Source: an uncultured Collinsella sp. (GTDB lineage: Bacteria; Actinomycetota; Coriobacteriia; Coriobacteriales; Coriobacteriaceae). From it: 64,000 nt of DNA. Positions 3,879 through 45,263 of the stretch are shown here, in pieces; positions within the stretch are counted from its first letter, which is position 1, and the number at the start of each line of letters is the position of its first letter. A program made the position numbers and the translations under genes. Location: positions 37,717 to 101,716 of the forward strand of contig UQLB01000005.1 of NCBI GenBank assembly GCA_900541725.1, in the 5' to 3' direction. The notes under the pieces are model-generated. The model was not told the DNA's origin, did no database searches, and was given only the letters and a program-made list of their open reading frames with translations.

Positions 3879-4611
3879 GACCGTCATTATGGGAACGGGC
3901 CGCATGGGCTCGCTCATCCGCACTACCGCCGAGGGCATTGTCGACGCCGCCGGTCAGCCCGTTTTTGATATCGTGGCCCAGATTGGCTTCGATTTGAGCG
4001 AGCTCGAGAACGCACCGGCTGCCGATGTGATTATCGACTTCTCGAACGTCGTGACCTTCGATGCCGTCGTCGCCTATGTCGAGCGCACGGGCGCCGCACT
4101 CGTTTCCGGCACCACGGGCTATTCACCTGAGCAGATGGACCGCCTGCGTGAGCTGGGCCAGAACACCCGCGTTATGCACTCGGGCAATTACTCCATCGGC
4201 ATCGCAGCCCTGCGTCATCTAGTGGCCCAGGCCACACGCGAGCTGCCCGGCTTTGACTGCGAGATCGTCGAGACGCACCACAACCAAAAGGTCGACGCCC
4301 CGAGCGGCACCGCCAAGCTACTGCTCGACGCCGTCGTCGAAGCTGAACCCGAGGCAGGCTACCACCCCGTCTATGGCCGCGAGGGCATGTGCGGCGCGCG
4401 TGGCCCCAAGGAGATCGGAATGCACTCGCTGCGCGGCGGCACCGTCGCCGGCGTGCACGAGGTTAGTTTCTTTGGCCAGGACGAGGAGGTCACGCTCACC
4501 CACCGCGCCACGAGCCGTCAGATCTTTGTCAACGGCGCCTTGGCAGCCGCGCAGAAGCTCGTCACCCGCGAACCCGGCTTCTATACGTTCGACAAGGTCA
4601 TGTTTGCCTAA
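3871..4611 (+). CDS. dapB: 4-hydroxy-tetrahydrodipicolinate reductase
   Basis: 246 aa. MIKTVIMGTGRMG N-terminus and the E-I-V-E-T-H-H-N-Q-K-V-D-A-P-S-G-T-A signature. TTG start overlapping the stop of the upstream ORF. Confidence 0.9.
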   Translation: MIKTVIMGTGRMGSLIRTTAEGIVDAAGQPVFDIVAQIGFDLSELENAPAADVIIDFSNVVTFDAVVAYVERTGAALVSGTTGYSPEQMDRLRELGQNTRVMHSGNYSIGIAALRHLVAQATRELPGFDCEIVETHHNQKVDAPSGTAKLLLDAVVEAEPEAGYHPVYGREGMCGARGPKEIGMHSLRGGTVAGVHEVSFFGQDEEVTLTHRATSRQIFVNGALAAAQKLVTREPGFYTFDKVMFA

Positions 4612-4650
4612 CCGGGTATCAACCGAATCCACCCAAAGGAGAGATAGCAA

Positions 4651-5370
4651 ATGAGCAACGCAGCCGAGATGGATGCACAGGAGATTATCAACTACATCGC
4701 CACCGCGCCCAAAAAGACGCCCGTCAAGCTGTACGTGCGCGAGAAGCCGGGCATGAAGGTTGCCTGGGGCAACGCACATGTCTACGGCGGTCGTCGTGGC
4801 AAGACCGTCTTTGGCGACTGGGATGAGCTTAAGGCCATCCTCGATGCCAATGCCGATTCCATCGATTACTACGACGTTGAAAACGATTGCCGCAACTCCG
4901 CCGTGCCCATGCTCGACCTTAAGGGCATCAACGCCCGCGTCGAGCCGGGCGCGATCATCCGCGACCGCGTCGAGATCGGCGACCGTGCCGTCATCATGAT
5001 GGGCGCCATCATCAACATCGGCTCCGTTATCGGCGAGGGTTCCATGATCGATATGGGCGCCGTGCTGGGCGGTCGCGCCACCGTGGGCAAGAACTGCCAC
5101 ATCGGCGCCGGCACCGTGCTGGCAGGCGTTGTGGAGCCCGCCAGCGCCACGCCCGTCATCATCGAGGACGATGTCATGATCGGCGCCAACGCCGTGGTTC
5201 TGGAGGGCGTGCACGTAGGCAAGGGCGCTGTCGTTGCCGCCGGCGCCGTGTGCGTCGAGGACGTCCCCGCCGGTGCCGTCGTGGCCGGTGTCCCCGCCCG
5301 CGTTATCAAGATGCGCGACGAGAAGACCGACAGCAAGACCGGCCTGGAAGAGGGCCTGCGCCAGCTGTAG
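4651..5370 (+). CDS. dapH: 2,3,4,5-tetrahydropyridine-2,6-dicarboxylate N-acetyltransferase (DapH-type hexapeptide-repeat acyltransferase; could alternatively be a succinyltransferase)
   Basis: 239 aa with left-handed beta-helix hexapeptide repeats (IGxxxxIxxGAVI...). Size and N-terminal domain match DapH. AAAGGAGAG SD. Confidence 0.75.
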
Positions 5371-5560
5371 AAGTTACGCGGTTTTGCCAAACCGCGTAAC
5401 GGCTCGACGCTGCAAACGCCCCTAAGCGGCAATCTGACGTTCAATCGTCGGTCGCGTACCGAAGTACGCTTCCCTCCTCTTTCACGTCACCTTGCTCGCT
5501 TAGGGGCGTTTTCGCTGACGTGAGCTCAACCTGCGGCGCAATGTCAGCAACCAAGCCGAA

Positions 5561-5606
5561 AACAAAAAAGGCCGAAGTCCCAAAAGGCTTCGGCCTTTGT
5601 TTTTTG
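5561..5606. terminator. Bidirectional rho-independent terminator between the dap operon (+) and ndpA-like gene (-)
   Basis: AAGGCCGAAG-tcccaaaag-CTTCGGCCTT followed by TTTGTTTTTTG on the + strand, and an A-run upstream serving the minus strand. Confidence 0.7.
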
Positions 5607-5623
5607 CAACGTCCAAGAGCAGT

Positions 5624-6637
5624 TTATCGATTCTCAATACTTCCGATGTTCTTGAGCTCGATGGAGATGAGGCCGTTGGGCTCGTTGACGAACTCGATAT
5701 ACTCGGAGTTCGAACCCATCTCGGCCGGGAAGCTGATCTCGATGCCCGTGTCGGTACGAATCTTGTGATTGCGCACGGCCGCACGCTCAACTTGCTTGCG
5801 CTCCACGGGCACGCGCTCAGGCACGTTCTCCTCGGTCAGCGCCGCACGCACGCTCTCCTTGATGACCGGCTCGTCCTCAAAGACCTCATCGACGATATCC
5901 CAAGGCGGCAGCTCCTCGTCATCCTCAACCTTCTCGGCCACAGCAGCCTTAACCTTAGCGAGCGCTACGGCCGTATTGGCACCGTGCTCCTCGGCGACTT
6001 CCTCGACCACGCGCGTCACCGTGTCGATGACCTCCTTACCCGATACGCCCGTGTCGCATTGCAGCAGGCCGTCGGGAATGAGCATGCGATCCTCGCCGGC
6101 AATCTTGCGCTTCTTATCCACGTAGCCGATCTCCATGGTGCTTGCGCGTACGATGGCATAGCTCGGAACCTTTTGCGAAGGGTTCGGCAGAATGGCATAG
6201 TGGCGCGCGATGTCGTTACGAACCTCGCCCTCTTCGCGACCCACCTCGTGCATGAATGCCTGTTTGGAGCCCAGCAGCATCACGGCAAACCAGCGGGCAT
6301 CCTCATCATCGTCAAAGTCCGCCACAAGCACGTCAGTGGACTCGGCTTTCTCGGCCTTGGTAAGTTCGGAAGAGATGAACTCCGCAATCTGCTGCGACAG
6401 GTCCACGAACTCACGCTCACCAAAGAAATAGCCCTTGAGCTCGCCGCCGAATGCGGAGTTCTCGGCAAACGTGGCACGCTTGTTGTCGGCCGAAGTACGA
6501 GCGCGGCGCAGATGCGTGGTCACGAAGTTGCGCACGGTACGGCTCTCGATATCGAGCTCGCGCTGGCTCATGACGTTGACGGCAGAGTCAAAGTCCAGGA
6601 TATGCAGGATCGCGTGATTGATTTTCATATACGGCAT
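5624..6637 (-). CDS. Nucleoid-associated protein, NdpA/YejK (NA37) family
   Basis: 337 aa. N-terminus MKINHAILHILDFDS is characteristic of the NdpA family. The opposite-strand ORF 5597..6673 is a GC-shadow. Confidence 0.7.
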   Translation of the reverse strand: MPYMKINHAILHILDFDSAVNVMSQRELDIESRTVRNFVTTHLRRARTSADNKRATFAENSAFGGELKGYFFGEREFVDLSQQIAEFISSELTKAEKAESTDVLVADFDDDEDARWFAVMLLGSKQAFMHEVGREEGEVRNDIARHYAILPNPSQKVPSYAIVRASTMEIGYVDKKRKIAGEDRMLIPDGLLQCDTGVSGKEVIDTVTRVVEEVAEEHGANTAVALAKVKAAVAEKVEDDEELPPWDIVDEVFEDEPVIKESVRAALTEENVPERVPVERKQVERAAVRNHKIRTDTGIEISFPAEMGSNSEYIEFVNEPNGLISIELKNIGSIENR

Positions 6638-6739
6638 TCCGTTCTAGATCGATTTCGGCACGAACCAGTATAGCGGTCGAGCCTGCCCCAGGCGCATCGA
6701 AGATTGGTGCATCGGGGACAGGTTGCTTTGCGCCAATGG

Positions 6740-7900
6740 TTAGCGCAGGAGCTCGGACTGCCAAGCCTCGAGCTGTTCTGCCAAACTCTTGCCGGCAGCG
6801 GGCACGTCGATCTGGGGTCGTTTGGGCAGCAGCGCACACTTAAGAATCGCAACGATGGTCTGCGAGACAAAGCGCCGCGTATCCTTGTCAAAGCCTTGCG
6901 CAGCCTGGAGCATCACGGGCAGGCTCTCGCGCAGATTCCCAGCGATATCCGCAAACCGTTCGGCGCCCGTAGCCTCAAACACGGAGAACAACGCATCTAC
7001 AAAACGCTCGCGCTCGCTAGGTGACACTGCAAGCAGCATCTCGCGAATGGAGCCATCAACGTATCGAGCACCGGCGGACAGGCGCTCACAGTACACGAAG
7101 TCGCAACCATCAACCACCCAGCTAAAGGGATTGTGCTGCAGCAGGCTGAACTCGGTGCTCTCAACGATGGCATAGTCCTCTTGTGTCTCGAACATCATGC
7201 CGAAGATCGACGACCGAGGTAGCGTCTTGTCGATTCGACCGGAAAAATCGGCAAAGGCGTTGCCGTTCAGGAACTCCTCGACGAAGCCCGGACCATCATG
7301 GGAATATGCCCGTTCGATTCGCTCACGGGCGACATCGGAGCACATCGCCGCACCGTACACCGCAAGGTTTCCACCCTTGGAATGACCTCCGCACAAAAGC
7401 GGCCCGTCGATCGCATCCGCCGCTTCGTCCACATAACGTGCCGCGGATTCCTGGGCCGGCACAGGGCACCGGAACGCCATGTTAAAGTCCTCTTTCCAGC
7501 CCACAATCGTGCTGTCGGTCCCCCGGAAGGAAAGATAACTAAACCCCGCCGGAAACCGGAACGCCATGGCTGCAAACTGCTCTGTCGCCACCACATCGCT
7601 CACGGCACGATAGCCGCAAACGTGCACGCCACGGTAGCGAGGGCTTGCCGCCACGGCCTCCAGCAAGGCCCTGCTCCCCTCTGGGTCCCATAGGTCGCCA
7701 ATCATGTCCCGGTAGCATTCGGCACGCAGCAGCTCTCGTACGTCTAGGCCCTGCCAGTTCGTCAGCTCCGCCATATCACCCGGCAAACGCAAATAGGACA
7801 ACCACGCAAAGACCAGGCTATCCACCGCGCAGAACGGCCGCTCCTCAAACGGATCAAACGCCGTCTGGGCATAGGTCAAAAAATTAGGCGAATCCGACAT
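6740..7900 (-). CDS. DUF2974/Mbeg1-like alpha/beta hydrolase (lipase-like)
   Basis: 386 aa. GGHSKGGNLAVYGA nucleophile-elbow motif (GHSxG). Confidence 0.6.
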   Translation of the reverse strand: MSDSPNFLTYAQTAFDPFEERPFCAVDSLVFAWLSYLRLPGDMAELTNWQGLDVRELLRAECYRDMIGDLWDPEGSRALLEAVAASPRYRGVHVCGYRAVSDVVATEQFAAMAFRFPAGFSYLSFRGTDSTIVGWKEDFNMAFRCPVPAQESAARYVDEAADAIDGPLLCGGHSKGGNLAVYGAAMCSDVARERIERAYSHDGPGFVEEFLNGNAFADFSGRIDKTLPRSSIFGMMFETQEDYAIVESTEFSLLQHNPFSWVVDGCDFVYCERLSAGARYVDGSIREMLLAVSPSERERFVDALFSVFEATGAERFADIAGNLRESLPVMLQAAQGFDKDTRRFVSQTIVAILKCALLPKRPQIDVPAAGKSLAEQLEAWQSELLR

Positions 7901-8014
7901 GGCCCTCCCATCAACTATAGTGCATTGGGGTCAGGTGACTTTGCACCAAAAAGGCGCCCGGGCCGCGTGGTCCCGAACGCCTTCATTGTAGCTTTTCGCT
8001 CTAGCGAGCTTGAT

Positions 8015-8965
8015 TTAGCAGGAGAAGTCGACGCTATCGATGATGTCCTTGAGGGCCTTGGCGGAGGCGGTGAGCTCATGCTGCTCGTCATCGTCCAGCG
8101 GCACGGGGACGCGGCAGACAACGCCGTCGCGGCCAACGACGGTCGGCATGGAGATGGCCAGATCGGACAGGCCATACTCGCCCACCATGAGCGAGGAGAC
8201 GGGCAGAACGGTCTGCTCATCGCGCATGACGGCGGTGCAGATGCGCTTGACGGCCATGGCGACGCCATAGTAGGTGGCGTGCTTCTTCTCGATGATGGTG
8301 TAGGCGGAGTTCTTGACGTCCTCGGCGATGCGCTTCTCGGCTGCCTCATGCTCCAGGTGGCCGTGAAGCTCACAGAAGGTGTTCAGCGGCACGCCGGCAA
8401 CCTGGGCGCTGGACCAAGCGACAAACTCGGAGTCGCCGTGCTCGCCCATGACGTAAGCCTGAACGTCGCGCGGGTCGACCTCGACGTGGGCGCCGAGCAT
8501 CTGCTGCAGACGGCCAGTGTCGAGCACGGTGCCGGAGCCGATGACGTGGCCCTCGGGCAGGCCGGACATCTTGATGGCGGCGTAGGTCAGAACGTCGACC
8601 GGGTTGGAGACGATGAGCAGAATGCCGTCGAAGCCAGACTTCTTAATCTCGGGAATAATGGACTTAAAGATGTTGACGTTCTTGTTGACCAGGTCCAGGC
8701 GGGTCTCACCGGGCTTCTGGGCAGCGCCAGCGGTGACGACGATCATGGCGGCGTCGGCGACATCGGAATAATCGCCGGCGTAGATCTTCATCGGCTCGGC
8801 AAACGTCATGCCGTGCGCGATATCCAAGGCCTCACCCTCGGCGCGGTTCTTGTCCACGTCGATGAGGACCATCTCGGAGAACAGGCCACTCTGCATCAGC
8901 GCGAACGCCGAAGACGAACCAACGAAACCGCAGCCGACAATAGCGACCTTCTTCTCGTTAACCAT
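8015..8965 (-). CDS. ldh: L-lactate dehydrogenase
   Basis: 316 aa. KVAIVGCGFVGSS Rossmann motif, and GEHGDS and catalytic-His regions typical of LDH. GGGAG SD. Confidence 0.95.
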   Translation of the reverse strand: MVNEKKVAIVGCGFVGSSSAFALMQSGLFSEMVLIDVDKNRAEGEALDIAHGMTFAEPMKIYAGDYSDVADAAMIVVTAGAAQKPGETRLDLVNKNVNIFKSIIPEIKKSGFDGILLIVSNPVDVLTYAAIKMSGLPEGHVIGSGTVLDTGRLQQMLGAHVEVDPRDVQAYVMGEHGDSEFVAWSSAQVAGVPLNTFCELHGHLEHEAAEKRIAEDVKNSAYTIIEKKHATYYGVAMAVKRICTAVMRDEQTVLPVSSLMVGEYGLSDLAISMPTVVGRDGVVCRVPVPLDDDEQHELTASAKALKDIIDSVDFSC

Positions 8966-9167
8966 TAGAAACTCCCATCTCTCTCCACAAACAAACCGCC
9001 CGAGAACGACCCCGAGCGGTTTGCCGTAACCCCAATATATCCAATCGGGACTTTGATTATGCTCCTATTCGCAGCCAAATATCGACCGTTTACCGAAATT
9101 GTTTGCAGGATTCGTAAAATAACTGCACGAAATCGGTTTCGAGCTATTGACGAGTCGAAATAGGTTT

Positions 9168-10331
9168 CTAATACAGGCCCGCCTCGCGAATGGCCTCGAC
9201 AGCCAAAGCGATCTGATCGGGCGGCAGGACCAGCGCCATGCGCACGTGCCCCTCGCCCGAAGGGCCAAAGCTCGCGCCCGGCGTCACCACAACGCCGGCC
9301 TTCTCCATAAGCTCCTCGCAAAACGCCATGGAATCGGTGCGATCACCGGGAAGCTTGGCCCACACAAACATGGAGCCATGCGCGTTGGGTCGCTCCCAGC
9401 CCAGGCCCTCAAGTCCGTCGCACAGGGCATCGCGGCGCTCCTGGTACTTCAGACGCTGTGCCTCGACCTCATCGCGTGGACCGTTCAGGCAGGCGATGGC
9501 GGCCTTCTGGATCGGGAAGAACATGCCAAAGTCGATCTGGCTGCGCAGCTTGGCAAAGGCAGAGACCACGTCCTCTCGGCCGACCAAAAAGCCGATGCGG
9601 GCACCGGTGACGTTAAACGACTTGGAGAGCGAGAAGAACTCAACGCCCACCTCGAGCGCGCCGGGATACTGCAAGAAGCTGCCGCCCGGCTCGCCGTCGA
9701 ACACGATGTCGGAGTATGCGTTGTCGTGAACGATCAGCAGGTCGTGCTCGCGGGCAAAAGCGATGATCTCCTCGTAGATCTCGGGCGTGCCCACCGAGCC
9801 CACCGGGTTGGCGGGCAGCGACACGATCATGTACTTGGCACGATCGGCCACCTCGGGATCGATGCCCGCCACATAGGGCAGGTAATTGTGCTCCGCCACC
9901 AGCGGATAATACTCGAGTTTGGCGTCGGCGATCTTGGCCCCCGCCTCAAAAACCGGGTAGCACGGATCGGGAACCAAAATGGTGTCACCCGGATCGAGCA
10001 GGGCCAGGCCCAAATGGCCCACGCCCTCCTGCGTGCCGTTGCACGACTGCACCATGGACGGCGTAATGCCCGAAACGCCAAAGCGACGCTCATAGTAATC
10101 GCACACAGCTTGCTTGAGTTCGGGCAGGTCGCGCAGGGCATACTTCCACATCTCGGGATCTTGGGCTGCCTGCGTGAGCGCCTCGACCACGTGGTCGTAC
10201 GGCTTAAAGTCGGGCGTGCCCACGCTCATGTTGTAAATGGTCTTGCCCTGAGCCTTCAGCGCAAGCAGTTTGTTGTTGAGCGAGGCGAAGACCTCCGCGC
10301 TAAAGCGGTCGAGACGCTGCGATGCCTGCAT
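9168..10331 (-). CDS. Class I/II PLP-dependent aminotransferase (LL-DAP/N-acyl-DAP aminotransferase-like)
   Basis: Start trimmed to the ATG at 10331 (MQASQRLDRF), which has AAAGGTGG SD 7 nt upstream. SLSKSFNVTGARIG motif with the PLP-binding Lys. Confidence 0.85.
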   Translation of the reverse strand: MQASQRLDRFSAEVFASLNNKLLALKAQGKTIYNMSVGTPDFKPYDHVVEALTQAAQDPEMWKYALRDLPELKQAVCDYYERRFGVSGITPSMVQSCNGTQEGVGHLGLALLDPGDTILVPDPCYPVFEAGAKIADAKLEYYPLVAEHNYLPYVAGIDPEVADRAKYMIVSLPANPVGSVGTPEIYEEIIAFAREHDLLIVHDNAYSDIVFDGEPGGSFLQYPGALEVGVEFFSLSKSFNVTGARIGFLVGREDVVSAFAKLRSQIDFGMFFPIQKAAIACLNGPRDEVEAQRLKYQERRDALCDGLEGLGWERPNAHGSMFVWAKLPGDRTDSMAFCEELMEKAGVVVTPGASFGPSGEGHVRMALVLPPDQIALAVEAIREAGLY

Positions 10332-10349
10332 GGTGCCACCTTTCGATAT

Positions 10350-10383
10350 GAAAAACGCGGCGCTCCGACAAGAGCGCCGCGCG
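10350..10383 (-). terminator. Rho-independent terminator downstream of nadE
   Basis: GCGCGGCGCTC-ttgtcg-GAGCGCCGCG hairpin followed by TTTTTCAT on the minus strand. Confidence 0.6.
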
Positions 10384-10449
10384 ATACGGGCCATCAGATT
10401 GCAAAAGTGTAACGCTTGCAACCCCCGTATTGGTTCAATTTAGCCAACC

Positions 10450-12450
10450 TTAGTCAATCGGATCGAGCGCATCGATCTGCGCAAGCCACAGACGTGAGCT
10501 GGCGTCACTCGGCATACGCCAATCGCCGCGCGGACTGAGCGTCACCGAGCCCACCTTGGGACCATCGGGCAGGCAGCTGCGCTTAAACTGCTGGGCAAAG
10601 AAGCGACGATAGAACGTACGCAACCACGTGTGGACGGTCTTGACGTCGTAGACGCCCTCGAAGCTCTTGAGCGCCATGCGGTAGATCTTGCCCGGCTCAA
10701 AGCCAAAACGCAGCAGGTAGTAGAGGAAGTAGTCGTGCAACTCGTACGGGCCCACCAAATCCTCGGTCTTCTGCGCAATCTCGCCGTCGCCCGTGGGCGG
10801 CAGAAGCTCGGGGGACACCGGCGTATCGAGGATATCGAGCAAGACCTCGGCAATGCGCCCGCCAAAGACATCGGCGGCATAGCGTACCAGATGGCGCACA
10901 AGCGTCTTGGGCACGCTCGCGTTGACGGCGTACATGCTCATGTGGTCGCCGTTATAGGTAGCCCAGCCGAGCGCCAGCTCCGACAGGTCGCCCGTGCCAA
11001 TGACAAAACCGCCAGCCTGGTTGGCCAGATCCATCAGAATCTGCGTACGCTCGCGCGCCTGGCTGTTCTCGTAGGTCACGTCCTGCACAGCTGGATCATG
11101 CTCAATGTCCTTGAAGTGCTGCTCCACAGCCGCGTGGATCGAAACCTCGCGGAAGCTCACACCCAGGTCGCGGGCGAGCGACTCGGCATTCGACTTGGTG
11201 CGATGCGTCGTGCCGAAGCCGGGCATGGACACGGCTGTGATACCAGTGCGCGGCAGCCCCAGTGCATCGAAGGCACGCACGGTCACAAGCAGCGCTAGCG
11301 TGGAGTCCAAGCCGCCCGAAAGGCCGATAACCGCAGCCTTGGTGCCCGTGTGGGCAAGGCGAGTCTTGAGGCCAGCAGTCTGCAGATTGAGAATAGTCTC
11401 GCAGCGCTCGGCCAGATCACCGTGGTCGGCCGGCACAAAAGGCGCGCGAGGGAAAACGCGGTCGATATCGCAGGCATCGCGCAGAACAGGCTCTTTGGCC
11501 AGCACGCCCTCAAAAGAGAACTCAACGGTCGTGGCCTCCGGCGCATCGTCCGCGCGCGTCCACGTCGTCGAGCGGCGGCGCTCGGCAACCAGGCGGTCAA
11601 GGTCAACGTCGGCGACGGCCATATCGCAGGTAAGCAGTTTGGTCGCAGCGAGTTTGGAGCCGTTTTCGTAGACGAGGTTCTCGCCCGCAAAGACCATGTC
11701 GGTTGTGGACTCGCCCTCACTCGCGTCCGCATAGGCATAGGCGCAGTACAGGCGCGCGCTCTGGTTAGAGATAAGGCTGCGGCGGTAATCTGCCTTACCG
11801 ATGATCTCATCGGAAGCGGAGGGGTTGAGAATCACCGTGGCACCGGCAAGCGCCATCTCGGTCGAAGACGGTGCCGGCACCCACAGGTCCTCGCAGACCT
11901 CAATACCGAGCACCAAATCCTCGGCGCCCTTATCGCAGCAGCGGTAGACAAGCCCCGAACCCAGCGGGACCGGACCCTGACCGGCAAATTCAAGCCAAAC
12001 AGGATCGGTAGGTGCCGGAGCAAACCAGCGGCGCTCGTAGAACTCGCCATAGTTGGGCAGATACTTCTTGGCCGTGAGGCCCAAAAGCTCGCCCGCGCAG
12101 CACACGGCGGCGCAGTTGTAGATATTCTCGGCAACTGCAACGGGAAGACCGATAGTAAAGACAATCGGCAGCTCACGAGTCTCATCGAGGATATGCACCA
12201 AAGCAGCCTCGCAGGCATGCAGTAATGTGCGGTTATGGAACAGATCGGCCGCGGTATAGCCGCACAAGTTGAGCTCGGGCAGTACCAGCGCGCGAACGCC
12301 GCGCTCAACAGCCGCGCGAACAGCCGCTAACGCAACCTCGGCATTGCCCTCGACATCGGCCACGCGAATCTGCGGCGACGCCGCCGCCACACGCAAAAAG
12401 CCATCGTTCTTATTAGCCGAAACGCAGCATTGCCTTGTTGATCTGGACAC
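10450..12450 (-). CDS. nadE: Glutamine-dependent NAD+ synthetase (nitrilase domain plus NAD synthetase domain)
   Basis: 666 aa. N-terminal CN-hydrolase domain (FLRVAAASPQIRVADVEGN...) and C-terminal SGGLDS PP-loop. GTG start at 12450 (GAAGGGG SD), so the start position is uncertain. Confidence 0.9.
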   Translation of the reverse strand: MSRSTRQCCVSANKNDGFLRVAAASPQIRVADVEGNAEVALAAVRAAVERGVRALVLPELNLCGYTAADLFHNRTLLHACEAALVHILDETRELPIVFTIGLPVAVAENIYNCAAVCCAGELLGLTAKKYLPNYGEFYERRWFAPAPTDPVWLEFAGQGPVPLGSGLVYRCCDKGAEDLVLGIEVCEDLWVPAPSSTEMALAGATVILNPSASDEIIGKADYRRSLISNQSARLYCAYAYADASEGESTTDMVFAGENLVYENGSKLAATKLLTCDMAVADVDLDRLVAERRRSTTWTRADDAPEATTVEFSFEGVLAKEPVLRDACDIDRVFPRAPFVPADHGDLAERCETILNLQTAGLKTRLAHTGTKAAVIGLSGGLDSTLALLVTVRAFDALGLPRTGITAVSMPGFGTTHRTKSNAESLARDLGVSFREVSIHAAVEQHFKDIEHDPAVQDVTYENSQARERTQILMDLANQAGGFVIGTGDLSELALGWATYNGDHMSMYAVNASVPKTLVRHLVRYAADVFGGRIAEVLLDILDTPVSPELLPPTGDGEIAQKTEDLVGPYELHDYFLYYLLRFGFEPGKIYRMALKSFEGVYDVKTVHTWLRTFYRRFFAQQFKRSCLPDGPKVGSVTLSPRGDWRMPSDASSRLWLAQIDALDPID

Positions 12451-38322: not shown

Positions 38323-39165
38323 CTAACCCAGCAGCTTATCCAGCGCCACCGCAATACCGTCTTCGTTGTTATTGGCGGTCACCATCTGGGCTACAGCCTT
38401 AACCTCATCGACGGCATTGCCCATGGCAACACCAGTGCCGGCCCACTCAATCATGGACTTGTCGTTCTGTCCGTCGCCAAACGATACGACCTCGCTGGCA
38501 TCGATGCCGAGCTTGGGCAGGGCACCCTCGAGCGCACGGGCCTTGTCGATACCGGGCGCCGTAAACTCGAAGTACCAGTCGGCCGTAAACATACCCGAAA
38601 GCGTCTGAGTAAAGGGCGCGTACATCTCCTCGTGATGCGCTTGCAGATAGGCCGGGTCGCCCGCAGTGAGTAGCTTGTCCACAGGATAAGCGTCAGCGAC
38701 CTCATGCAGGCTCTCCACCTCGCGGATCTTAAGATCGCACGCATCGCGCTCATACTTGACGATATTCTTCTGCGAGCCGTCAGGCAGCGTGATCATGCAA
38801 TGATACGAGTCCTCGACGTGTAAATCGCGACCGAGCGAAATCATAGGGATCACGTCAAAATTACGCAGGTGATCAATCAGGCGATGCAATTCGTCGGCAG
38901 GCATAGCCTGATCGAACAGCACCTCGTCGGTCTGGGCATCGACGACGTGAGCGCCGTTAAAGGCCACCAGCAGACCGTCATGGTTTTGAAGGTCGAGCTC
39001 CTGTGCCAAGGCGTGCAGCCCCCATGCGGGACGGCCCGAAGCCAAAATGAGCTTAATGCCCGACTCCTGCGCCGCGAGCAGCTTCTCGCGCGTACGCGGG
39101 CTAATCACTTTCTGGTCGTTGGTGAGCGTACCGTCGATATCCATTGCGATGGCTTTGATTGCCAT
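38323..39165 (-). CDS. Cof-type HAD-IIB sugar phosphatase
   Basis: Start at the ATG at 39165 after GGGAGG SD (MAIKAIAMDIDGTL). C-terminal GDGQNDKSM. Confidence 0.8.
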   Translation of the reverse strand: MAIKAIAMDIDGTLTNDQKVISPRTREKLLAAQESGIKLILASGRPAWGLHALAQELDLQNHDGLLVAFNGAHVVDAQTDEVLFDQAMPADELHRLIDHLRNFDVIPMISLGRDLHVEDSYHCMITLPDGSQKNIVKYERDACDLKIREVESLHEVADAYPVDKLLTAGDPAYLQAHHEEMYAPFTQTLSGMFTADWYFEFTAPGIDKARALEGALPKLGIDASEVVSFGDGQNDKSMIEWAGTGVAMGNAVDEVKAVAQMVTANNNEDGIAVALDKLLG

Positions 39166-39772
39166 ATATGCCTCCCTGTCATTGAACAACCTTGTCTGAG
39201 CCATCATACAGAACACCCACCGCGACTCCGTTTGCAACGGGCAAAAAGTCATATATTGTCTCAAACATGGACGGGACGCCATCTCGGGGCTCAGTCGTTC
39301 CAGCCCAAACGCCGAGCCACCACATGCAAAGCTAACGACGCTAAACGCGGCCGCCCCACTGACCTCATTTCATCCCGGAGAAAAAATTTCAAAATTAGTT
39401 CTTGTCAAATCAGCAAAACGAACGTAATTTAAAGATGACCGCTCCGGTGGTCATCGTTTGATCGAGCATATTCAGTTTCAGTTTTCAGCGTGTAAGAGAA
39501 AGAAGATCGGCAAAGTACAACCCCAAACGCAATGACAACTTAATGAGGTAACTGCCGCATGTGAGGCACCCAGGGCATTGCTGTCTCGATTTTGAGCACG
39601 ATGCCTTCCGCCTTGCATGGGCCGTTCCATCCCGCCCCTGCAGCAACTGCCTCACGGGCTCATTGAAAACCGCATAGCACCCCAACGTCAGCACATCACC
39701 CACGGCAAGCACATCACTCACGACAACCAACACATCAACAAACAGCACGAACATCAACCGATTGGAGAAGCT

Positions 39773-39982
39773 ATGACAAACCACCACGCTGAAGACGGCG
39801 AAAAGAAAAGCATTCTGGATGCCCGCATTGAGCGAGCATATGCAAACGAATATGACGCCGCCTTTGCCGCCGCGACCATCAAGAACTACGCGTCGCTACC
39901 GCTCGCGACGATCTTGGCCGACCGCCCTCAACTGCTGAAGCGCTGCACAAAGATCATGGGGACCCCGACATTCGCAAGTTGA
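39773..39982 (+). CDS. Small hypothetical protein (about 69 aa)
   Basis: ATG after GGAGAAGCT. First ORF of the inserted block. No recognisable domain. Confidence 0.35.
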   Translation: MTNHHAEDGEKKSILDARIERAYANEYDAAFAAATIKNYASLPLATILADRPQLLKRCTKIMGTPTFAS

Positions 39983-40662
39983 CAGACCCCTATGCCCCAA
40001 AACGCGACAACGATTCGTACGTTCTTACCGTAGGCTGCCTAGCCCATATGCTTACGGCGCTCGACACGAAACTCAAGCTCAAATGGGAACCCGACGAGCG
40101 TCATGAACTCGAAAGCAAGCGGAACACCCTGCGCACCGCACTGTTCCTTCCGTTGGACGGCCTCAAGCGCTGCAACGTCGAGCTCAATACACGGGCGCGG
40201 CAAAAGCCCGGGACCACGGGGCAGAAAACTCCAAGACCCCATGCGGCCATCGTCGACCGCAACCGATATAACCGCATGACCGCGCACTTTTCTGCCGAGG
40301 GAGCAGCCATAAGGACGCTGATCGACCTGCTGTGCCTCCTGAGCATCAACGAGCTATTTGAGGGCTATCTCGCCCTTGTTCCCGCGACGGCACCCAAGTC
40401 GGTAGCAAAGATCATCGAGACCTGCAGACGCCAGTTTGAGCGCCATCGCAATGGCAGCGAGATGAACGCCAGCATCGCGCAGTACTACGCGGCTCATTAC
40501 AAAAATGACGGATGTGCCCCTGTCGAGCATCAGCTGCGGCTCGCCTACACCACGCCCGCCGCAACGCTCTATCGCTTTGGAGCCCTTGGCGCTTGCGAGC
40601 CGCACGAACAGGCAGCCTGCCCCACAACCGAACTCGATCTCAGGCTCGGACGAACCCTGTAG
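39979..40662 (+). CDS. Hypothetical protein (227 aa)
   Basis: ORF with possible TTG start overlapping the upstream stop. No motifs recognised. Confidence 0.45.
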   Translation: MTDPYAPKRDNDSYVLTVGCLAHMLTALDTKLKLKWEPDERHELESKRNTLRTALFLPLDGLKRCNVELNTRARQKPGTTGQKTPRPHAAIVDRNRYNRMTAHFSAEGAAIRTLIDLLCLLSINELFEGYLALVPATAPKSVAKIIETCRRQFERHRNGSEMNASIAQYYAAHYKNDGCAPVEHQLRLAYTTPAATLYRFGALGACEPHEQAACPTTELDLRLGRTL

Positions 40663-40728
40663 CCCGCCAGCCCCTCCGCGGGCAACAATCCTATTCCTCC
40701 ACAACACAACCAACAGAAAGGAGTCCTC

Positions 40729-41346
40729 ATGGACACCAATCATTCCCCCATCATCAGCCCCCTCACCATGCGTGAATCCGCCCGAGGCATCACGCTCACC
40801 AGCATTTACGATGAGATGCTCGCCCGTCGCGAGCTCTCCGTCATGGGAAACATCGAAACCCCGATGGTTCACGACCTATGCCAGCAGATCCGCCTGCTCG
40901 ATGCCACCGACCCCAGCCGTCCCATCACCATATTTGTCGCCAGCGCCGGCGGAAGCGTGCGATCGGGTCTTGCGATCTATGACGCCATGCGCCTCGCATC
41001 GTGCCCCATCCGCACCGTCTGCCTGGAATTCGCCGCGTCCATGGGCGCCGTGATCTTTATGGGCGGCGACGATCGCCGTATGGCGCCCCATGCAGAGCTC
41101 ATGATTCACGACCCGCTGATCCCCCAGGGGGCAGGCGGCTCGGCACTTGCGCTGCAGGAAACCAGCCGGCGTCTCATGCAGACCCGCAAGACCCTCACGC
41201 AAATCCTCTCGGACCGCAGCGGCCTCACGCCCAAGCGCATCCAGTCCCTCACTGCAAAAGACACCTACCTTTCGGCCGAGCGCGCCGTCGAGCTCGGCTT
41301 TGCCCACGAAATCCTCTCGACCACCAAGGAGGTCGCCCATGTCTAA
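40729..41346 (+). CDS. ClpP-like (S14 family) serine protease, stand-alone
   Basis: 205 aa. EFAASMGAVIFMGGD (catalytic Ser in the AASMG motif) and MIHDPLIP (His, equivalent to ClpP IHQPL). AAGGAG SD. Confidence 0.8.
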   Translation: MDTNHSPIISPLTMRESARGITLTSIYDEMLARRELSVMGNIETPMVHDLCQQIRLLDATDPSRPITIFVASAGGSVRSGLAIYDAMRLASCPIRTVCLEFAASMGAVIFMGGDDRRMAPHAELMIHDPLIPQGAGGSALALQETSRRLMQTRKTLTQILSDRSGLTPKRIQSLTAKDTYLSAERAVELGFAHEILSTTKEVAHV

Positions 41347-42643
41347 CCTCGCCAGCCGCCTCGCCGCATCTGAGTCCGCATTGTCCACCATCCTCGCCAA
41401 GGATCGAACGCTTTCCTGCGACACCCGCCAAACGGGACTCAACAACAATGCACTTGTGATCGGCCCCTCGGGAGCCGGCAAGACCCGAAACGTCCTCAAG
41501 CCCAACCTACTGCAAATGAACGCAAGCTACATCGTGCTCGACACCAAAGGCACGCTCTGTCGCGAAGTGGGACCCGTGCTGGCAGCCCACGGTTACCGCG
41601 TGCAATGTCTCAACTTCGCCGACCTCAACACCGTCCCGGCCCTTGCGCCCGGCATCGAGCGCTGCGGCTACAACCCCCTGAGGCACATTCGCCGCAAGGC
41701 GGACGGCAGGCCCAACCAGCAGGACATCCTCTCGGTGGCAAAGGCCATCTGCCCCATCGAGGACAACAACCAGCCTTTTTGGGATCATGCGGCGGCAAAC
41801 CTGCTGTCGTGTCTTATCGCCTACGTCACCGAACAGCTACCCGCCGACGAGCAGACGATCAGCTCGGTCATCAAGCTGATCGAGCACCTGCAGGACGGTG
41901 CCACGGGTCGATTGTTTGACGACCTGATCACGACCGACCCCCAAAGCTATGCCCTCTCGCTATGGCGGCGCTACGCCATTACGCAAAATGCCGAGCGCAT
42001 GCACGCGAGCATCGTCGGCATCCTTGCCGAAAAGGTCATGTGTCTGGGATTCGACGGTGCGGCACAGCTCTATCGTGAGTGCCATCAGGTGGACTTCGCT
42101 TCCATGGGACACACCCCCTGCGCCTTGTTTGTAACCGTGAGCGATATTGACCGCAATCTCGATCCGCTGACCGGCCTCTTTATTTCGCAGGCGTTTATGG
42201 GCCTCATTCGTGAGGCCGATAGGCAGCCCGACGGCAGCCTGCCCGTGCCCGTGCGCTTTATGCTCGATGACTTCGCAAATCTGCAGATCCCCCAGATCGA
42301 CAACGTGCTCTCGATTATCCGAAGCCGCAACATCTGGGCAGCGCTGCTGCTGCAGTCCACCAACCAGCTCGATGCGCTCTATGGCGAGGCACGCGCACGC
42401 TCCATCATGGGCAACTGCGACACGCATCTGGTGCTGGCGTTCCAGGATCCCGAGAGTGCCCGGGTGTTTTCCGACCGCGCCGACGCGCTGCCCAGCACGC
42501 TCATGGCGACGCCGATTGATCGCTCGTGGCTCTTTGTACGCGGTCGCACTCCCGAACAGGTCGAGCGCTTTAGGCTCGAAGACCATCCGCTCTACGGGGA
42601 GCTGCCCGAGGCGCAGCGAGGCCATGCGGAGGCCGAGATCTAG
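41339..42643 (+). CDS. VirD4/TraG/TraD-like type IV coupling-protein-family ATPase, soluble (no N-terminal TM segments)
   Basis: Start ATG overlaps the ClpP-like stop (ATGTCTAA). Walker A GPSGAGKT. MLDDFANLQIPQIDNVLSIIRSRNIWAALLLQSTNQLDALYGEA matches the TraG-D_C/T4CP signature. 434 aa. Confidence 0.7.
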   Translation: MSNLASRLAASESALSTILAKDRTLSCDTRQTGLNNNALVIGPSGAGKTRNVLKPNLLQMNASYIVLDTKGTLCREVGPVLAAHGYRVQCLNFADLNTVPALAPGIERCGYNPLRHIRRKADGRPNQQDILSVAKAICPIEDNNQPFWDHAAANLLSCLIAYVTEQLPADEQTISSVIKLIEHLQDGATGRLFDDLITTDPQSYALSLWRRYAITQNAERMHASIVGILAEKVMCLGFDGAAQLYRECHQVDFASMGHTPCALFVTVSDIDRNLDPLTGLFISQAFMGLIREADRQPDGSLPVPVRFMLDDFANLQIPQIDNVLSIIRSRNIWAALLLQSTNQLDALYGEARARSIMGNCDTHLVLAFQDPESARVFSDRADALPSTLMATPIDRSWLFVRGRTPEQVERFRLEDHPLYGELPEAQRGHAEAEI

Positions 42644-42721
42644 GCGCAGGGTTCTCGCAGCGCGCGGCGCCCCGGCGATGTTCCACAAAGGCCGTGCGCC
42701 CCGGGACCACGGCAAAGCAAA

Positions 42722-42752
42722 GGGGCCCGCATCCGATAGGATACGGGCCCCT
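42722..42752 (-). terminator. Rho-independent terminator downstream of pgi
   Basis: GGGGCCCG(T/C)ATCC-tatc-GGAT(G/A)CGGGCCCC hairpin followed by TTTGCTTTG on the minus strand. Confidence 0.6.
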
Positions 42753-42784
42753 GACTATAAGACGCGATGCGTTAACAGCAGCGA

Positions 42785-44479
42785 CTACTTGCGATGCGCG
42801 CGGTAGAACTCGATGAGCGCCTGGGTCGAAGCGTCCTGCTCGGCCTTGGCGGCGTCGTCGTGGAAGGCAGGGGTGATCTGCTTGGCAAGCTGCTTACCCA
42901 GCTCGACGCCCCACTGGTCGTAGGAGTCGATGCCCCAGACCGTGCCCTCGACAAACGTGATGTGCTCGTACAGGGCAATGAGCTCACCGAGCGCGAACGG
43001 GGTCAGCGTGTCGCCGAAGATCGAGGTCGTCGGACGGTTGCCCTCAAAGCAGCGGGCCGGGACGATCTGCTCGGGCGTGCCCTCGGCACGAACCTCGTCG
43101 GCCGTCTTGCCAAAGGCGAGCGCCTTGGTCTGGGCCAGGAAGTTGCCCAGGAACAGCTCATGCACGTCCTGGCCGCTATCGGTCGCAGGGTTGGCAGTAT
43201 TGGCGAAGGCGATGAAGTCGGCCGGAACCACCACAGTGCCCTGGTGCAGCAGCTGGTAGAAGGCATGCTGGCCGTTGGTGCCGGGCTCGCCCCAGAAGAT
43301 CTCGCCGGTATCGGAGGTCACAGCGCTGCCGTCCCAGCGAACGTGCTTGCCGTTGGACTCCATGGTGAGCTGCTGCAGGTAGGCCGGGAAGCGGTGCAGA
43401 TACTGGCAGTACGGAAGCACGGCGTGGCTCTTGGAGCCGAAGAAGTTGACGTACCAGACGTTGAGCAGGCCCATCAGCGCGACGGCGTTGCTCTCGAGCG
43501 GCGTGTTGCAGAAGTACTCGTCGATGGCGTGGAAGCCCTCGAGGAACTGCTGGAAGCGCTCGGGGCCGAGCACGACGATCAGCGACAGGCCCACGGCGGA
43601 GTCGACGGAGTAGCGGCCGCCGACCCAGTTCCAGAAGCCGAAGGCGTTGGCGGGGTCGATACCGAAGGCCTCGACCTTCTCGAGTGCGGTGGAAACGGCG
43701 ACGAAGTGCTTTGCCACGGCCTCGGCGTTCTGCTCCTCGGAGCCGTCGATGGCGCCCTGAGCCTTGAGCTGCTCGAGCATCCAGGCCTTGACCTCGCGAG
43801 CGTTGGTGAGGGTCTCAAGCGTGGTGAAGGTCTTGGAAACGATGATCACGAGCGTGGTCTCGGGATCGAGGCCCTTGAGCTTCTCTGCCTGATCGTTGGG
43901 GTCGATGTTGGAGATATAGCGGCAGTCGATACCGGCGTCGGCGTAGGGACGCAGAGCCTCGTAGGCCATGACCGGGCCCAGGTCGGAGCCGCCGATGCCG
44001 ATGGACACCAGGTGCTCGATCTTCTTGCCGGTAACGCCCTTCCACTCACCGGAGCGAACGCGCTCGGCGAAGGCATACATGCGGTCGAGGACCTCGTGCA
44101 CGTCGGCGACGACGTCCTGGCCGTCGACGATGAGCTGGCCCTTCTCGGTTGCCGGGCGGCGCAGCGCGGTGTGCAGAACGGCGCGGTCCTCGGTGGTATT
44201 GATGTGCTCGCCGGAGAACATGGCGTCGCGGCGCTCCTCGAGTTTCACCTCGCGGGCAAGATCGCACAGCAGCTTGACGGTCTCATCGGTCACCAGGTTC
44301 TTGGACAGATCGAAGTGAAGGTCGCCAGCGTCAAAGCTCAACTTATTCACGCGGTCGACATCGGCGGCGAACCAGGCCTTGAGGTCGATGCCCTCGGCCT
44401 CGAGCTTCTCCTGATGGGCCTCGAGCGCCTTCCAAGCGGCGGTCGACGTAGCGTCGATAGGTGCGGCAACAGTTGCCAT
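42785..44479 (-). CDS. pgi: Glucose-6-phosphate isomerase
   Basis: Start at the ATG at 44479 ([19 protein letters not shown]) with GAGGAGG SD. Full-length PGI motifs ([23 protein letters not shown]). Confidence 0.95.
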
Positions 44480-44602
44480 AGAGTCCTCCTCAACATACGG
44501 GCGCATACCTCCATGCACCCGGATAATCAGACGCCCCTATTCTAGCGCAGGTCAAGACCGTAATCAGCGAGCGTTGCCAATCCGCCCCCAAACGGCGACC
44601 GA

Positions 44603-44678: not shown

Positions 44679-45263
44679 TTAGGCCGCGGCGCATACGCTG
44701 CCGAGCAGCTCGCGCAGAGGAGACCCAATACCCTCAAGCAGTTCGGGAGCGATAATGGCAAAAACGGGAACCTCGCCGGCTCCCACGACGGCAGGCACTT
44801 TGCCCTCCGAGACAATACATCCATAAGGGACAAAACCGTCTTCGCCGGCATCGAGCGCCGCCATGCGACGGGCGAGTTCGCGCGCAAAGCCGGCAGTATC
44901 GGCATCGCCAATCGCCAAGACAAAGTCCACACCTTCGTCGGTCGCCAGGGCCACGGCTTCGTCGATCAGCTCGTCTCCCCCATCGCCAACCGAGCCGCAG
45001 CGGAAAAGCACGCGCTCGAGCAGAGCTCGATCAACCGAGCCGAGTGCCGCCGAAACGAGCTCATCGCGCGTATGTTTGTCACCGCCCAGCACGACCAGCG
45101 CCTTGGTGCCACCGTAGTGAGCGACCAATCGTCCGCACCAGCGAGCCACGTCTCCATCCGCAACAAGGCGCGTCGGCATACCAAACCCATAATTGACCAT
45201 CTTTCCCACAACCCTTCCGTGCGTATAGGCGGTATCAATCGTTAGGCTCATGCTACGAAGCAA
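44679..45263 (-). CDS. Hypothetical protein (194 aa), possible nucleotide-binding alpha/beta fold
   Basis: Gly-rich segments (GGTKALVVLGGD, SVGDGGDE, AIGDADT). Divergent from the SOS-regulated polymerase gene. Confidence 0.45.
   Translation of the reverse strand: MLRSMSLTIDTAYTHGRVVGKMVNYGFGMPTRLVADGDVARWCGRLVAHYGGTKALVVLGGDKHTRDELVSAALGSVDRALLERVLFRCGSVGDGGDELIDEAVALATDEGVDFVLAIGDADTAGFARELARRMAALDAGEDGFVPYGCIVSEGKVPAVVGAGEVPVFAIIAPELLEGIGSPLRELLGSVCAAA

Follow-up and report, generated by a model that had tools for sequence, protein, structure and literature searches.

We analysed a stretch of 64,000 nucleotides from an uncultured Collinsella sp. (contig UQLB01000005.1; the whole stretch is called the window hereafter) and found that it carries an operon of three genes that is resident in Coriobacteriia and wholly cytoplasmic. 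[quoted passage not shown] Its genes, with the evidence for each, are:

39773–40662, + strand: gene B′, made up of a 69-amino-acid open reading frame (ORF; 39773–39982) and a 227-amino-acid ORF with a TTG start (39979–40662); ORF list and alignment
40729–41346, + strand: gene C, ClpP paralogue (family S14) of 205 amino acids; Pfam and motifs
41339–42643, + strand: gene D, T4CP-like P-loop ATPase of 434 amino acids without transmembrane segment; Pfam, NCBIfam and AlphaFold2 model

The comparisons described below suggest that C and D are the core that is conserved in a broader module, as yet undescribed, to which each clade adds accessory genes. It is quite possible, if still tentative, that the cassette is an undescribed ATPase–protease module in genetic conflict, in which a ring of D would work with a ClpP-like barrel and B′ would serve recognition or regulation, a function that we infer.

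Gene D has the motor of a T4CP. An earlier reading of the DNA from its letters and ORFs (the sequence-only reading) had proposed a T4CP-family ATPase of 434 amino acids with the TraG-D_C signature and, indeed, D matched the Pfam families T4SS-DNA_transf (PF02534, 5.1e-32), TraG-D_C (9.7e-20) and TrwB_AAD_bind (1.1e-16), the other accessions matched being PF10412 and PF12696. Its Walker A (GPSGAGKT, residues 42–49) and Walker B (LDDF, residues 309–312) motifs are invariant across an alignment of 13 sequences. The AlphaFold2 model of D (pLDDT 88) has a nucleotide-binding domain and an inserted all-alpha domain, and its top Foldseek matches, over the full length, were Cagβ (8dol) and TrwBΔN70 (TMq 0.63–0.73), both of them soluble T4CP domains; HerA chains from SIR2-HerA and DUF4297-HerA complexes (8sub, 8wod, 8xaw) scored lower. 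In its two domains, its Walker motifs and its superposable fold, D is like the conjugative T4CPs (TrwB/VirD4/TraG and the CD1115 family). It also passed the NCBIfam equivalog model NF045973 (VirD4-like, CD1115 family), with 254.8 bits against a cut-off of 250 bits over profile positions 3–372 of 442; this pass is marginal and, as a match at the level of a name, would not establish a conjugative function.

In contrast to conjugative T4CPs, D has no N-terminal transmembrane anchor. As the sequence-only reading had held, no transmembrane segment was predicted in it (maximum KD19 value 1.30), nor was one concealed upstream by a wrongly called start: the in-frame upstream extension (from TTG 41147) is rich in Pro, Ser and Arg rather than hydrophobic, and overlaps the clpP-like gene. 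No N-terminal hydrophobic segment was found in the 13 aligned D homologues or in 10 metagenome representatives; in the positive control (L087) transmembrane segments were found at residues 9–38 and 71–94. A CD1115-family T4CP of a Paenibacillus plasmid, for comparison, has 620 amino acids and two N-terminal transmembrane helices, and its gene is clustered with VirB4, PrgI and relaxase genes. D has no such neighbours in the examined loci, and lies instead almost always beside a ClpP paralogue, in a fixed chromosomal slot. With neither an anchor nor a type IV secretion system (T4SS) context, D thus retains the T4CP motor without two features that define conjugative T4CPs. Its relatives in PLSDB are plasmid T4CPs of about 30% identity, and no PHROG family matched it. 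The cluster of the Collinsella ATPase at 90% identity holds 19,061 member sequences.

We rejected an apparent ClpP–T4CP fusion, P0001 (637 amino acids), as evidence of coupling: it is a frameshifted clpP-like gene that reads via the out-of-frame ORF 41147–41338 into the ATPase. P0003 (47 member sequences) resembles P0001 in its length and domain set. As a separate observation, Lactobacillus ultunensis (L088; NZ_CP059830.1, 7914–9464) encodes an orphan CD1115-family T4CP of 516 amino acids, with no transmembrane segment, among metabolic genes, and neither T4SS genes nor an annotated Clp protease gene were seen around it. It might represent a second type of T4CP without an anchor, independent of the first.

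The partner of D, gene C, matched Pfam CLP_protease at 6.6e-44. Its triad, Ser104 (AASMG), His127 (MIHDP) and Asp178 (AKD), aligns with the triad positions of ClpP and is retained in all 10 aligned lineages, in agreement with the catalytically intact S14 protease proposed from the sequence. C aligns over its whole length with ClpPs of known structure (6cfd, 2.9e-32; residues 11–199), the N-terminal region included. Its best NCBIfam ClpP score, however, was 147.4 bits against a cut-off of 249 bits, and it remained under the cut-off of every ClpP model, so that C is a paralogue and not the orthologue of housekeeping ClpP. With the ClpP of ClpXP, ClpCP and ClpAP it shares the full-length S14 fold and the Ser-His-Asp triad, but it differs in its own signature (DEML..RE, MIHDPLI) and in its genomic partner, which is a RecA-fold ATPase of the FtsK/HerA superfamily rather than an AAA+ unfoldase; the cassette contains no AAA+ gene. 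C also matched PHROG and NCBIfam head-maturation models at 1e-27 to 1e-36 (phrog_94, 2.4e-36). The PHROG prohead-protease matches were partial and weaker than those to cellular ClpP and, although the phage proteases have a ClpP/S14-type domain in common with C, C is not fused to a scaffold or capsid protein, and its neighbours include no portal, capsid or terminase gene. From its alignments, C is a full-length ClpP paralogue of the cellular type.

The two genes are closely linked. Shine–Dalgarno-like sites precede both (AAAGGAG at 40717–40723 before C, AAGGAGG at 41326–41332 before D), and the stop of C and the start of D share an 8-nucleotide overlap, ATGTCTAA, which supports the translational coupling of protease and ATPase suggested earlier. 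Of at least 531 relatives in GTDB species genomes we used the best 80, chosen by similarity to D. With the exception of one labelled Bulleidia sp. (L065), these come from Collinsella or from metagenome-assembled genomes, and their ATPases are 99–100% identical to that of the window. The order HAD-family hydrolase gene, B′, C, D, pgi is kept in about 70 of the 80 loci. The slot between HAD and pgi is also filled in L093, whose ATPase is 57% identical to that of the window, and Thermophilibacter (L003) has the cassette in a HAD-flanked slot; in other Coriobacteriia (L098, L006, L001) it lies between yacP (NYN) and tuf. The cassette is, in all, kept between lineages with ATPases 57–59% identical. 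The gene order is B′-C-D in the window, L089, L093, L003, L096 and L098, and B′-D-C in L006, and the cassette is duplicated in L001. L098 has the three genes on their own between the two housekeeping genes, so that the cassette is a self-contained unit.

In the sampled contexts from Coriobacteriia, the ClpP-like gene is next to the T4CP-like gene everywhere save in L091, where five ORFs, one a T4CP fragment, lie between the two. This locus (4501–12044) reads ClpP, a 269-amino-acid protein, a 102-amino-acid T4CP fragment (5960–6268), three unassigned proteins of 115, 369 and 638 amino acids, a full T4CP and a 262-amino-acid paralogue of the 269-amino-acid protein; this layout suggests that an insertion has disrupted or duplicated a cassette. 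The tandem arrangement in L001 (7310–14967) has two B′-like genes (321 and 316 amino acids), two T4CP-like genes (491 and 466 amino acids, 62% identical) and one ClpP-like gene, with insertion sequence elements upstream and SSB and DprA genes downstream.

Using a relative of 42% identity as the seed, we scanned metagenomes and obtained 61 loci with GC contents of 0.37–0.65, of which 50 were informative; many of the 61 are near-duplicates, and they represent about 6–7 distinct clades. The ClpP-like gene adjoins the T4CP-like gene in 48 of the 50, and some of the pair-bearing contigs are probably from Firmicutes. No match to relaxase, VirB4, PrgI or FtsK markers was obtained by tblastn in the 61 loci, and Pfam revealed no relaxase or T4SS genes within about 10 kb (8 kb for L096–L099) in nine Coriobacteriia contexts. 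IMG/VR contained one relative only among 2.9 million viral contigs. The pair, therefore, does not always reside inside complete conjugative elements or prophages. Near the window locus, too, no relaxase, T4SS gene or integrase was found, as had been noted when the block was judged not to be a conjugation module.

The accessory genes beside the pair differ clade by clade. The neighbours are DarT-NADAR (DarTG) in L006, a PDC-M16B-like CSD protein and a Mokosh-like SF1 helicase in L096, McrBC and a DnaB_C-like ATPase in L130, PRTase_2/TRSP in L112, and SLFN/AlbA in L003. In one low-GC clade, the genes of L107 (7024–16778) are those of a D5-like primase-helicase, of two small ORFs, and of ClpP, T4CP, DUF5688, a RadC-like JAB protein and, lastly, a large serine recombinase; they indicate a small integrative element. 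A D5-like primase is also found beside the pair in L105, and a DUF3991/Toprim protein in L095, the neighbours of which gave no NCBIfam match.

The protein encoded 3′ of the ATPase has 404 amino acids in L003 (8538–9752; Thermophilibacter) and 434 in L096 (9336–10640; Ca. Olsenella). In L096 it has a Pfam S1CSD-TOTE-2 domain and a PADLOC PDC-M16B match, and the TOTE conflict-system name of this CSD protein is taken from PMC12458937. In L003 the start of the gene overlaps the ATPase stop, which counts toward its being a fourth gene of the cassette. Even so, the S1CSD-TOTE-2 gene of L096 and L003 is more likely part of a neighbouring PDC-M16-like candidate system, and we did not count it in the cassette.

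The third gene, B′, is broken in the window. The sequence-only reading had counted the 69- and 227-amino-acid ORFs as two proteins of a four-gene block; they proved to be halves of a single 296-amino-acid gene split by a one-nucleotide deletion, leaving three genes, one of them frameshifted. Homologues of the 227-amino-acid ORF have 296 or 348 amino acids and include the region of the 69-amino-acid ORF. All 77 Collinsella loci aligned over 39900–40060 have an extra base relative to the window, C after 39960 in 75 and A after 39962 in two (window context ATGGG[C]GACCCC), and restoring it creates a single 296-amino-acid ORF, which is intact in 75 of the 77; the window copy is thus frameshifted. 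The deletion of C after 39960 is unique to the window among 78 Collinsella sequences (the window and the 77 loci). B′ is broken by another frameshift in L018 and has a late stop in L029. The frameshift may be a real mutation or a one-base assembly error; if it is real, the system may be impaired here.

B′ matched no family in Pfam, NCBIfam, PADLOC or PHROG, and a full-library HMMER search returned 26 representatives only among 1.84 billion proteins, none annotated. Its predicted model is all-helical, with medium confidence, and has no meaningful neighbour in PDB. Beside the pair, other Coriobacteriia encode proteins of about 256–343 amino acids that are very distantly homologous to B′ (hhalign probability 96.4%, E 1.3e-9), and profile comparison suggests that the upstream proteins of Coriobacteriia cassettes are one very divergent family. 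Matches with a probability of at least 50% were confined to Coriobacteriia proteins among themselves; hhalign gave none between B′ and the accessory proteins that other clades add (those upstream and downstream in clade II, DUF5688, TOTE-like, L091, L095 and others).

We compared the evolution of the three genes in Collinsella. C is intact in 78 of 79 loci and D in 80 of 80, and the ratio of non-synonymous to synonymous polymorphism (pN/pS) is 0.12 (pooled) for C and 0.13 for D, in contrast to 0.47 for B′. Synonymous divergence (dS) of B′, C and D is about 0.026 among the 80 loci, as compared with 0.10–0.63 for flanking genes, the cassette value being biased downward by the selection of these loci for similarity to D. 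The only unbiased comparison is that with L089, a genome picked via B′ and not via D; here dS was 0.032 for D, and 0.64, 0.61 and 0.14 for HAD2, dinB and pgi, respectively. A cassette dS so far below that of the flanks implies allele exchange.

The window and L089 are 40.9% identical in the B′ protein, 85.9% in C, 99.3% in D and 86–99% in the flanks. Their nucleotide identity is about 50–59% across B′, climbs through clpP, and reaches 100% at 41300–42099 and 99–100% to 42299. Of the 29 ClpP differences between the two, 25 fall within residues 1–115, and a mosaic breakpoint lies inside clpP. With the bias of the 80 loci borne in mind, these patterns indicate that C and D are under purifying selection, that B′, whose alleles are replaceable, evolves much faster, and that recombination exchanges the cassette between lineages. 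We also noted a sharp divergence trough, about 1 kb of D being 99–100% identical to L089 in nucleotides while the adjacent HAD gene differs by about 10%.

The surroundings of the cassette in the window are as follows, the genes being identified as ORFs and by Pfam on the syntenic locus L089:

37600–38307, − strand: HAD-family hydrolase gene
38323 to about 39165, − strand: HAD-family hydrolase gene (Hydrolase_3)
39166–39772, + strand: long AT-richer intergenic or leader region 5′ of the cassette; GC composition
42721–42752, no strand assigned: GC-rich hairpin (14 bp) between D and pgi, which converge; inverted repeat, 93% complementary
42785–44518, − strand: pgi

The flanking HAD phosphatases and pgi had been named correctly from the sequence, and the upstream end of the block is indeed AT-richer (leader GC 0.506 against 0.576 for the whole window), but the block, described as inserted, is not a recent insertion. 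The cassette has a GC content of 0.59–0.63 and a third-position GC (GC3) of 0.70–0.79, similar to the flanks; a repeat search found no flanking direct, inverted or att-like repeats at the cassette; and its slot is occupied in the 57%-identical lineage L093 and HAD-flanked in L003. There is no tRNA in the 64-kb window. The HAD ORF 38323–39282 has 319 amino acids in the window, against 280 for its homologue in L089 and L090, and its true start is probably near 39165 rather than 39282, which makes the intergenic leader about 600 nucleotides long. The leader is poorly conserved, at least 80% of 39283–39772 being alignable in 8 of 77 Collinsella loci only. The candidate promoter proposed there (TTGTCA-N17-TAATTT, 39402–39430) is weak: it matches the consensus at only 8 of 12 positions, and a promoter scan of 39100–42900 returned no sigma-70-like site. 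Rfam gave no match on 38800–43200. The hairpin is probably a terminator common to D and pgi, with a T-run on the pgi side. Between pgi and the dinB-like gene lies a short ORF of 194 amino acids (44679–45263, − strand); its counterpart in L089 has 167 amino acids and a Pfam Fe-ADH match. Typical iron alcohol dehydrogenases are far longer, so that the ORF may be a truncated remnant that has been conserved.

The sequence-only reading had matched the gene combination to no described system, and we likewise found none with this protease–ATPase pair in PADLOC-DB v2.0.0 or in the literature searched. The cassette is similar in logic to the anti-phage complexes SIR2-HerA and DUF4297-HerA, where a hexameric ATPase of the FtsK/HerA superfamily is combined with an oligomeric effector encoded next to it, and we claim no membership in either. 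It differs from them in that its ATPase is of the T4CP clade and its putative effector is a protease rather than an NADase or nuclease; the PADLOC HerA and SIR2 models gave no match in the cassette. Gao Iet and the BREX BrxL Lon-like protease also follow the general logic of a small operon in which a P-loop NTPase and a protease are coupled. Their families, however, are unrelated to those of the cassette (KAP/AAA+ ATPases, and subtilisin or Lon proteases), and the PADLOC models of these ATPase-plus-protease defence pairs found no match in it.

If the cassette is, as we tentatively propose, a conflict module, D would form a TrwB-like hexameric ring, and the ring and the ClpP-like barrel together would make an NTP-driven proteolytic machine. 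D may select a target and thread it into the barrel, or may gate the barrel, while B′ would give target recognition or regulation. Rather than exporting DNA, such a machine would defend against invading DNA elements or act in the competition between them. The physical interaction of C, D and B′, the substrate and the role in conflict are what we infer from sequence and gene neighbourhood. In a more specific and, in our view, improbable version, the D hexamer would be a non-AAA+ partner of ClpP that, by an ability retained from ancestral T4CPs, recognizes pilot proteins linked to DNA (relaxases, terminal proteins) or other invader proteins through the hypervariable adaptor B′ and delivers them to the protease, giving immunity against conjugative, plasmid or phage DNA.

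Several points weigh against a conflict module. The putative interaction of C with D is deduced solely from the adjacency of their genes and the start/stop overlap. The usual partners of ClpP are AAA+ unfoldases, which dock by IGF-type loops, and C could use host ClpX or ClpC in place of D. In PADLOC-DB v2.0.0, including its PDC candidates, B′ and C had no match at E ≤ 0.1, and D had only weak ones to mad8 (3e-7, 28 bits) and PtuA (0.034). The outcome was unchanged for full-length B′ (P0124) and for the low-GC clade (E ≤ 0.01), and the text of the MADS preprint contains no description of the mad8 domain. Defence neighbours occur in only about 5 of about 12 distinct contexts, a count that comes without background statistics. 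In addition, the same slot in at least 70 of 80 Collinsella species genomes and the at least 531 GTDB relatives make the cassette more core-like than typical defence systems, and the low cassette dS among the 80 loci carries the downward bias described above.

It is also possible, though unlikely, that the cassette is a lineage-specific housekeeping or stress protease, an alternative Clp machine in which a specialized ATPase and an adaptor serve particular cellular substrates, with no genetic conflict involved. The shared slot in Collinsella species genomes and related genera, the strong purifying selection on C and D, the host-like composition and the position of the L098 cassette among translation genes are consistent with such a protease. 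However, B′ alleles are only 41% identical within near-identical backgrounds, and the cassette dS, far under that of the flanks, implies that alleles are exchanged. Moreover, accessory genes are specific to clades, one of which is carried by an integrative element, the slot varies with lineage (HAD–pgi or yacP–tuf), and B′ is frameshifted in the window and in L018 while the rest of the cassette is retained, all of which argue against a housekeeping role.

The family of D raises another explanation, that the cassette is the mobilization module of an integrative mobilizable element, where D would recruit DNA to a helper T4SS and the ClpP-like protein would process a transfer protein, the Collinsella copy being domesticated or stranded. 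Some integrative mobilizable elements do encode their own T4CP, D reaches the NF045973 cut-off for the CD1115 family, and its relatives of about 30% identity are plasmid T4CPs. The L107 clade, with its large serine recombinase, D5-like primase-helicase and RadC, as well as the D5-like primase in L105 and DUF3991/Toprim in L095, would also fit a mobile element. In canonical T4CPs, however, the transmembrane segment anchors the protein in the membrane and holds the hexamer at the T4SS channel, and it is missing from every pair-linked T4CP checked. Furthermore, a relaxase or VirB4 was found in none of about 70 loci, the window locus has neither an integrase nor an att-like repeat, the chromosomal slot is fixed across genera, and there is no known role in mobilization for a protease partner. 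We therefore regard mobilization as a rather improbable explanation. That the cassette is a non-functional remnant left by the decay of a conjugative element or prophage (a prohead protease with a packaging-like ATPase), for which the phrog_94 match of C, the conjugative origin of the T4CP family and the B′ pseudogene of the window could be cited, is largely refuted and very improbable, given that C and D are intact nearly everywhere at a pN/pS of about 0.12, the cassette is conserved across lineages with ATPases 57–59% identical, C is a full-length ClpP of cellular type, D lacks a PHROG match, capsid, portal, terminase, relaxase and T4SS genes are absent nearby, and IMG/VR holds a single relative.

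The accepted view of T4CPs is that they are anchored in the membrane as the substrate receptors of machines for conjugation and secretion, and ClpP is seen as working with AAA+ unfoldases. An anchorless T4CP whose gene lies almost always next to that of a ClpP paralogue, in the absence of a T4SS, suggests that both parts are used in a way not described in PADLOC-DB v2.0.0 or the literature searched. The pair is widespread, being found across contigs of GC 0.37–0.65, and is abundant in the human gut. If the ATPase truly drives the protease, it would broaden the repertoire of compartmental proteases. If, further, the substrates are invader proteins, this would be the first ClpP protease driven by an ATPase of the FtsK/HerA superfamily, and a part of conjugation would have been turned on incoming elements. 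The locus also offers a case of allele replacement in one gene next to nearly frozen neighbours. Should the cassette be a barrier to plasmids or phages, it would bear on phage susceptibility and on the flow of genes in a commensal that is prevalent in the human gut.

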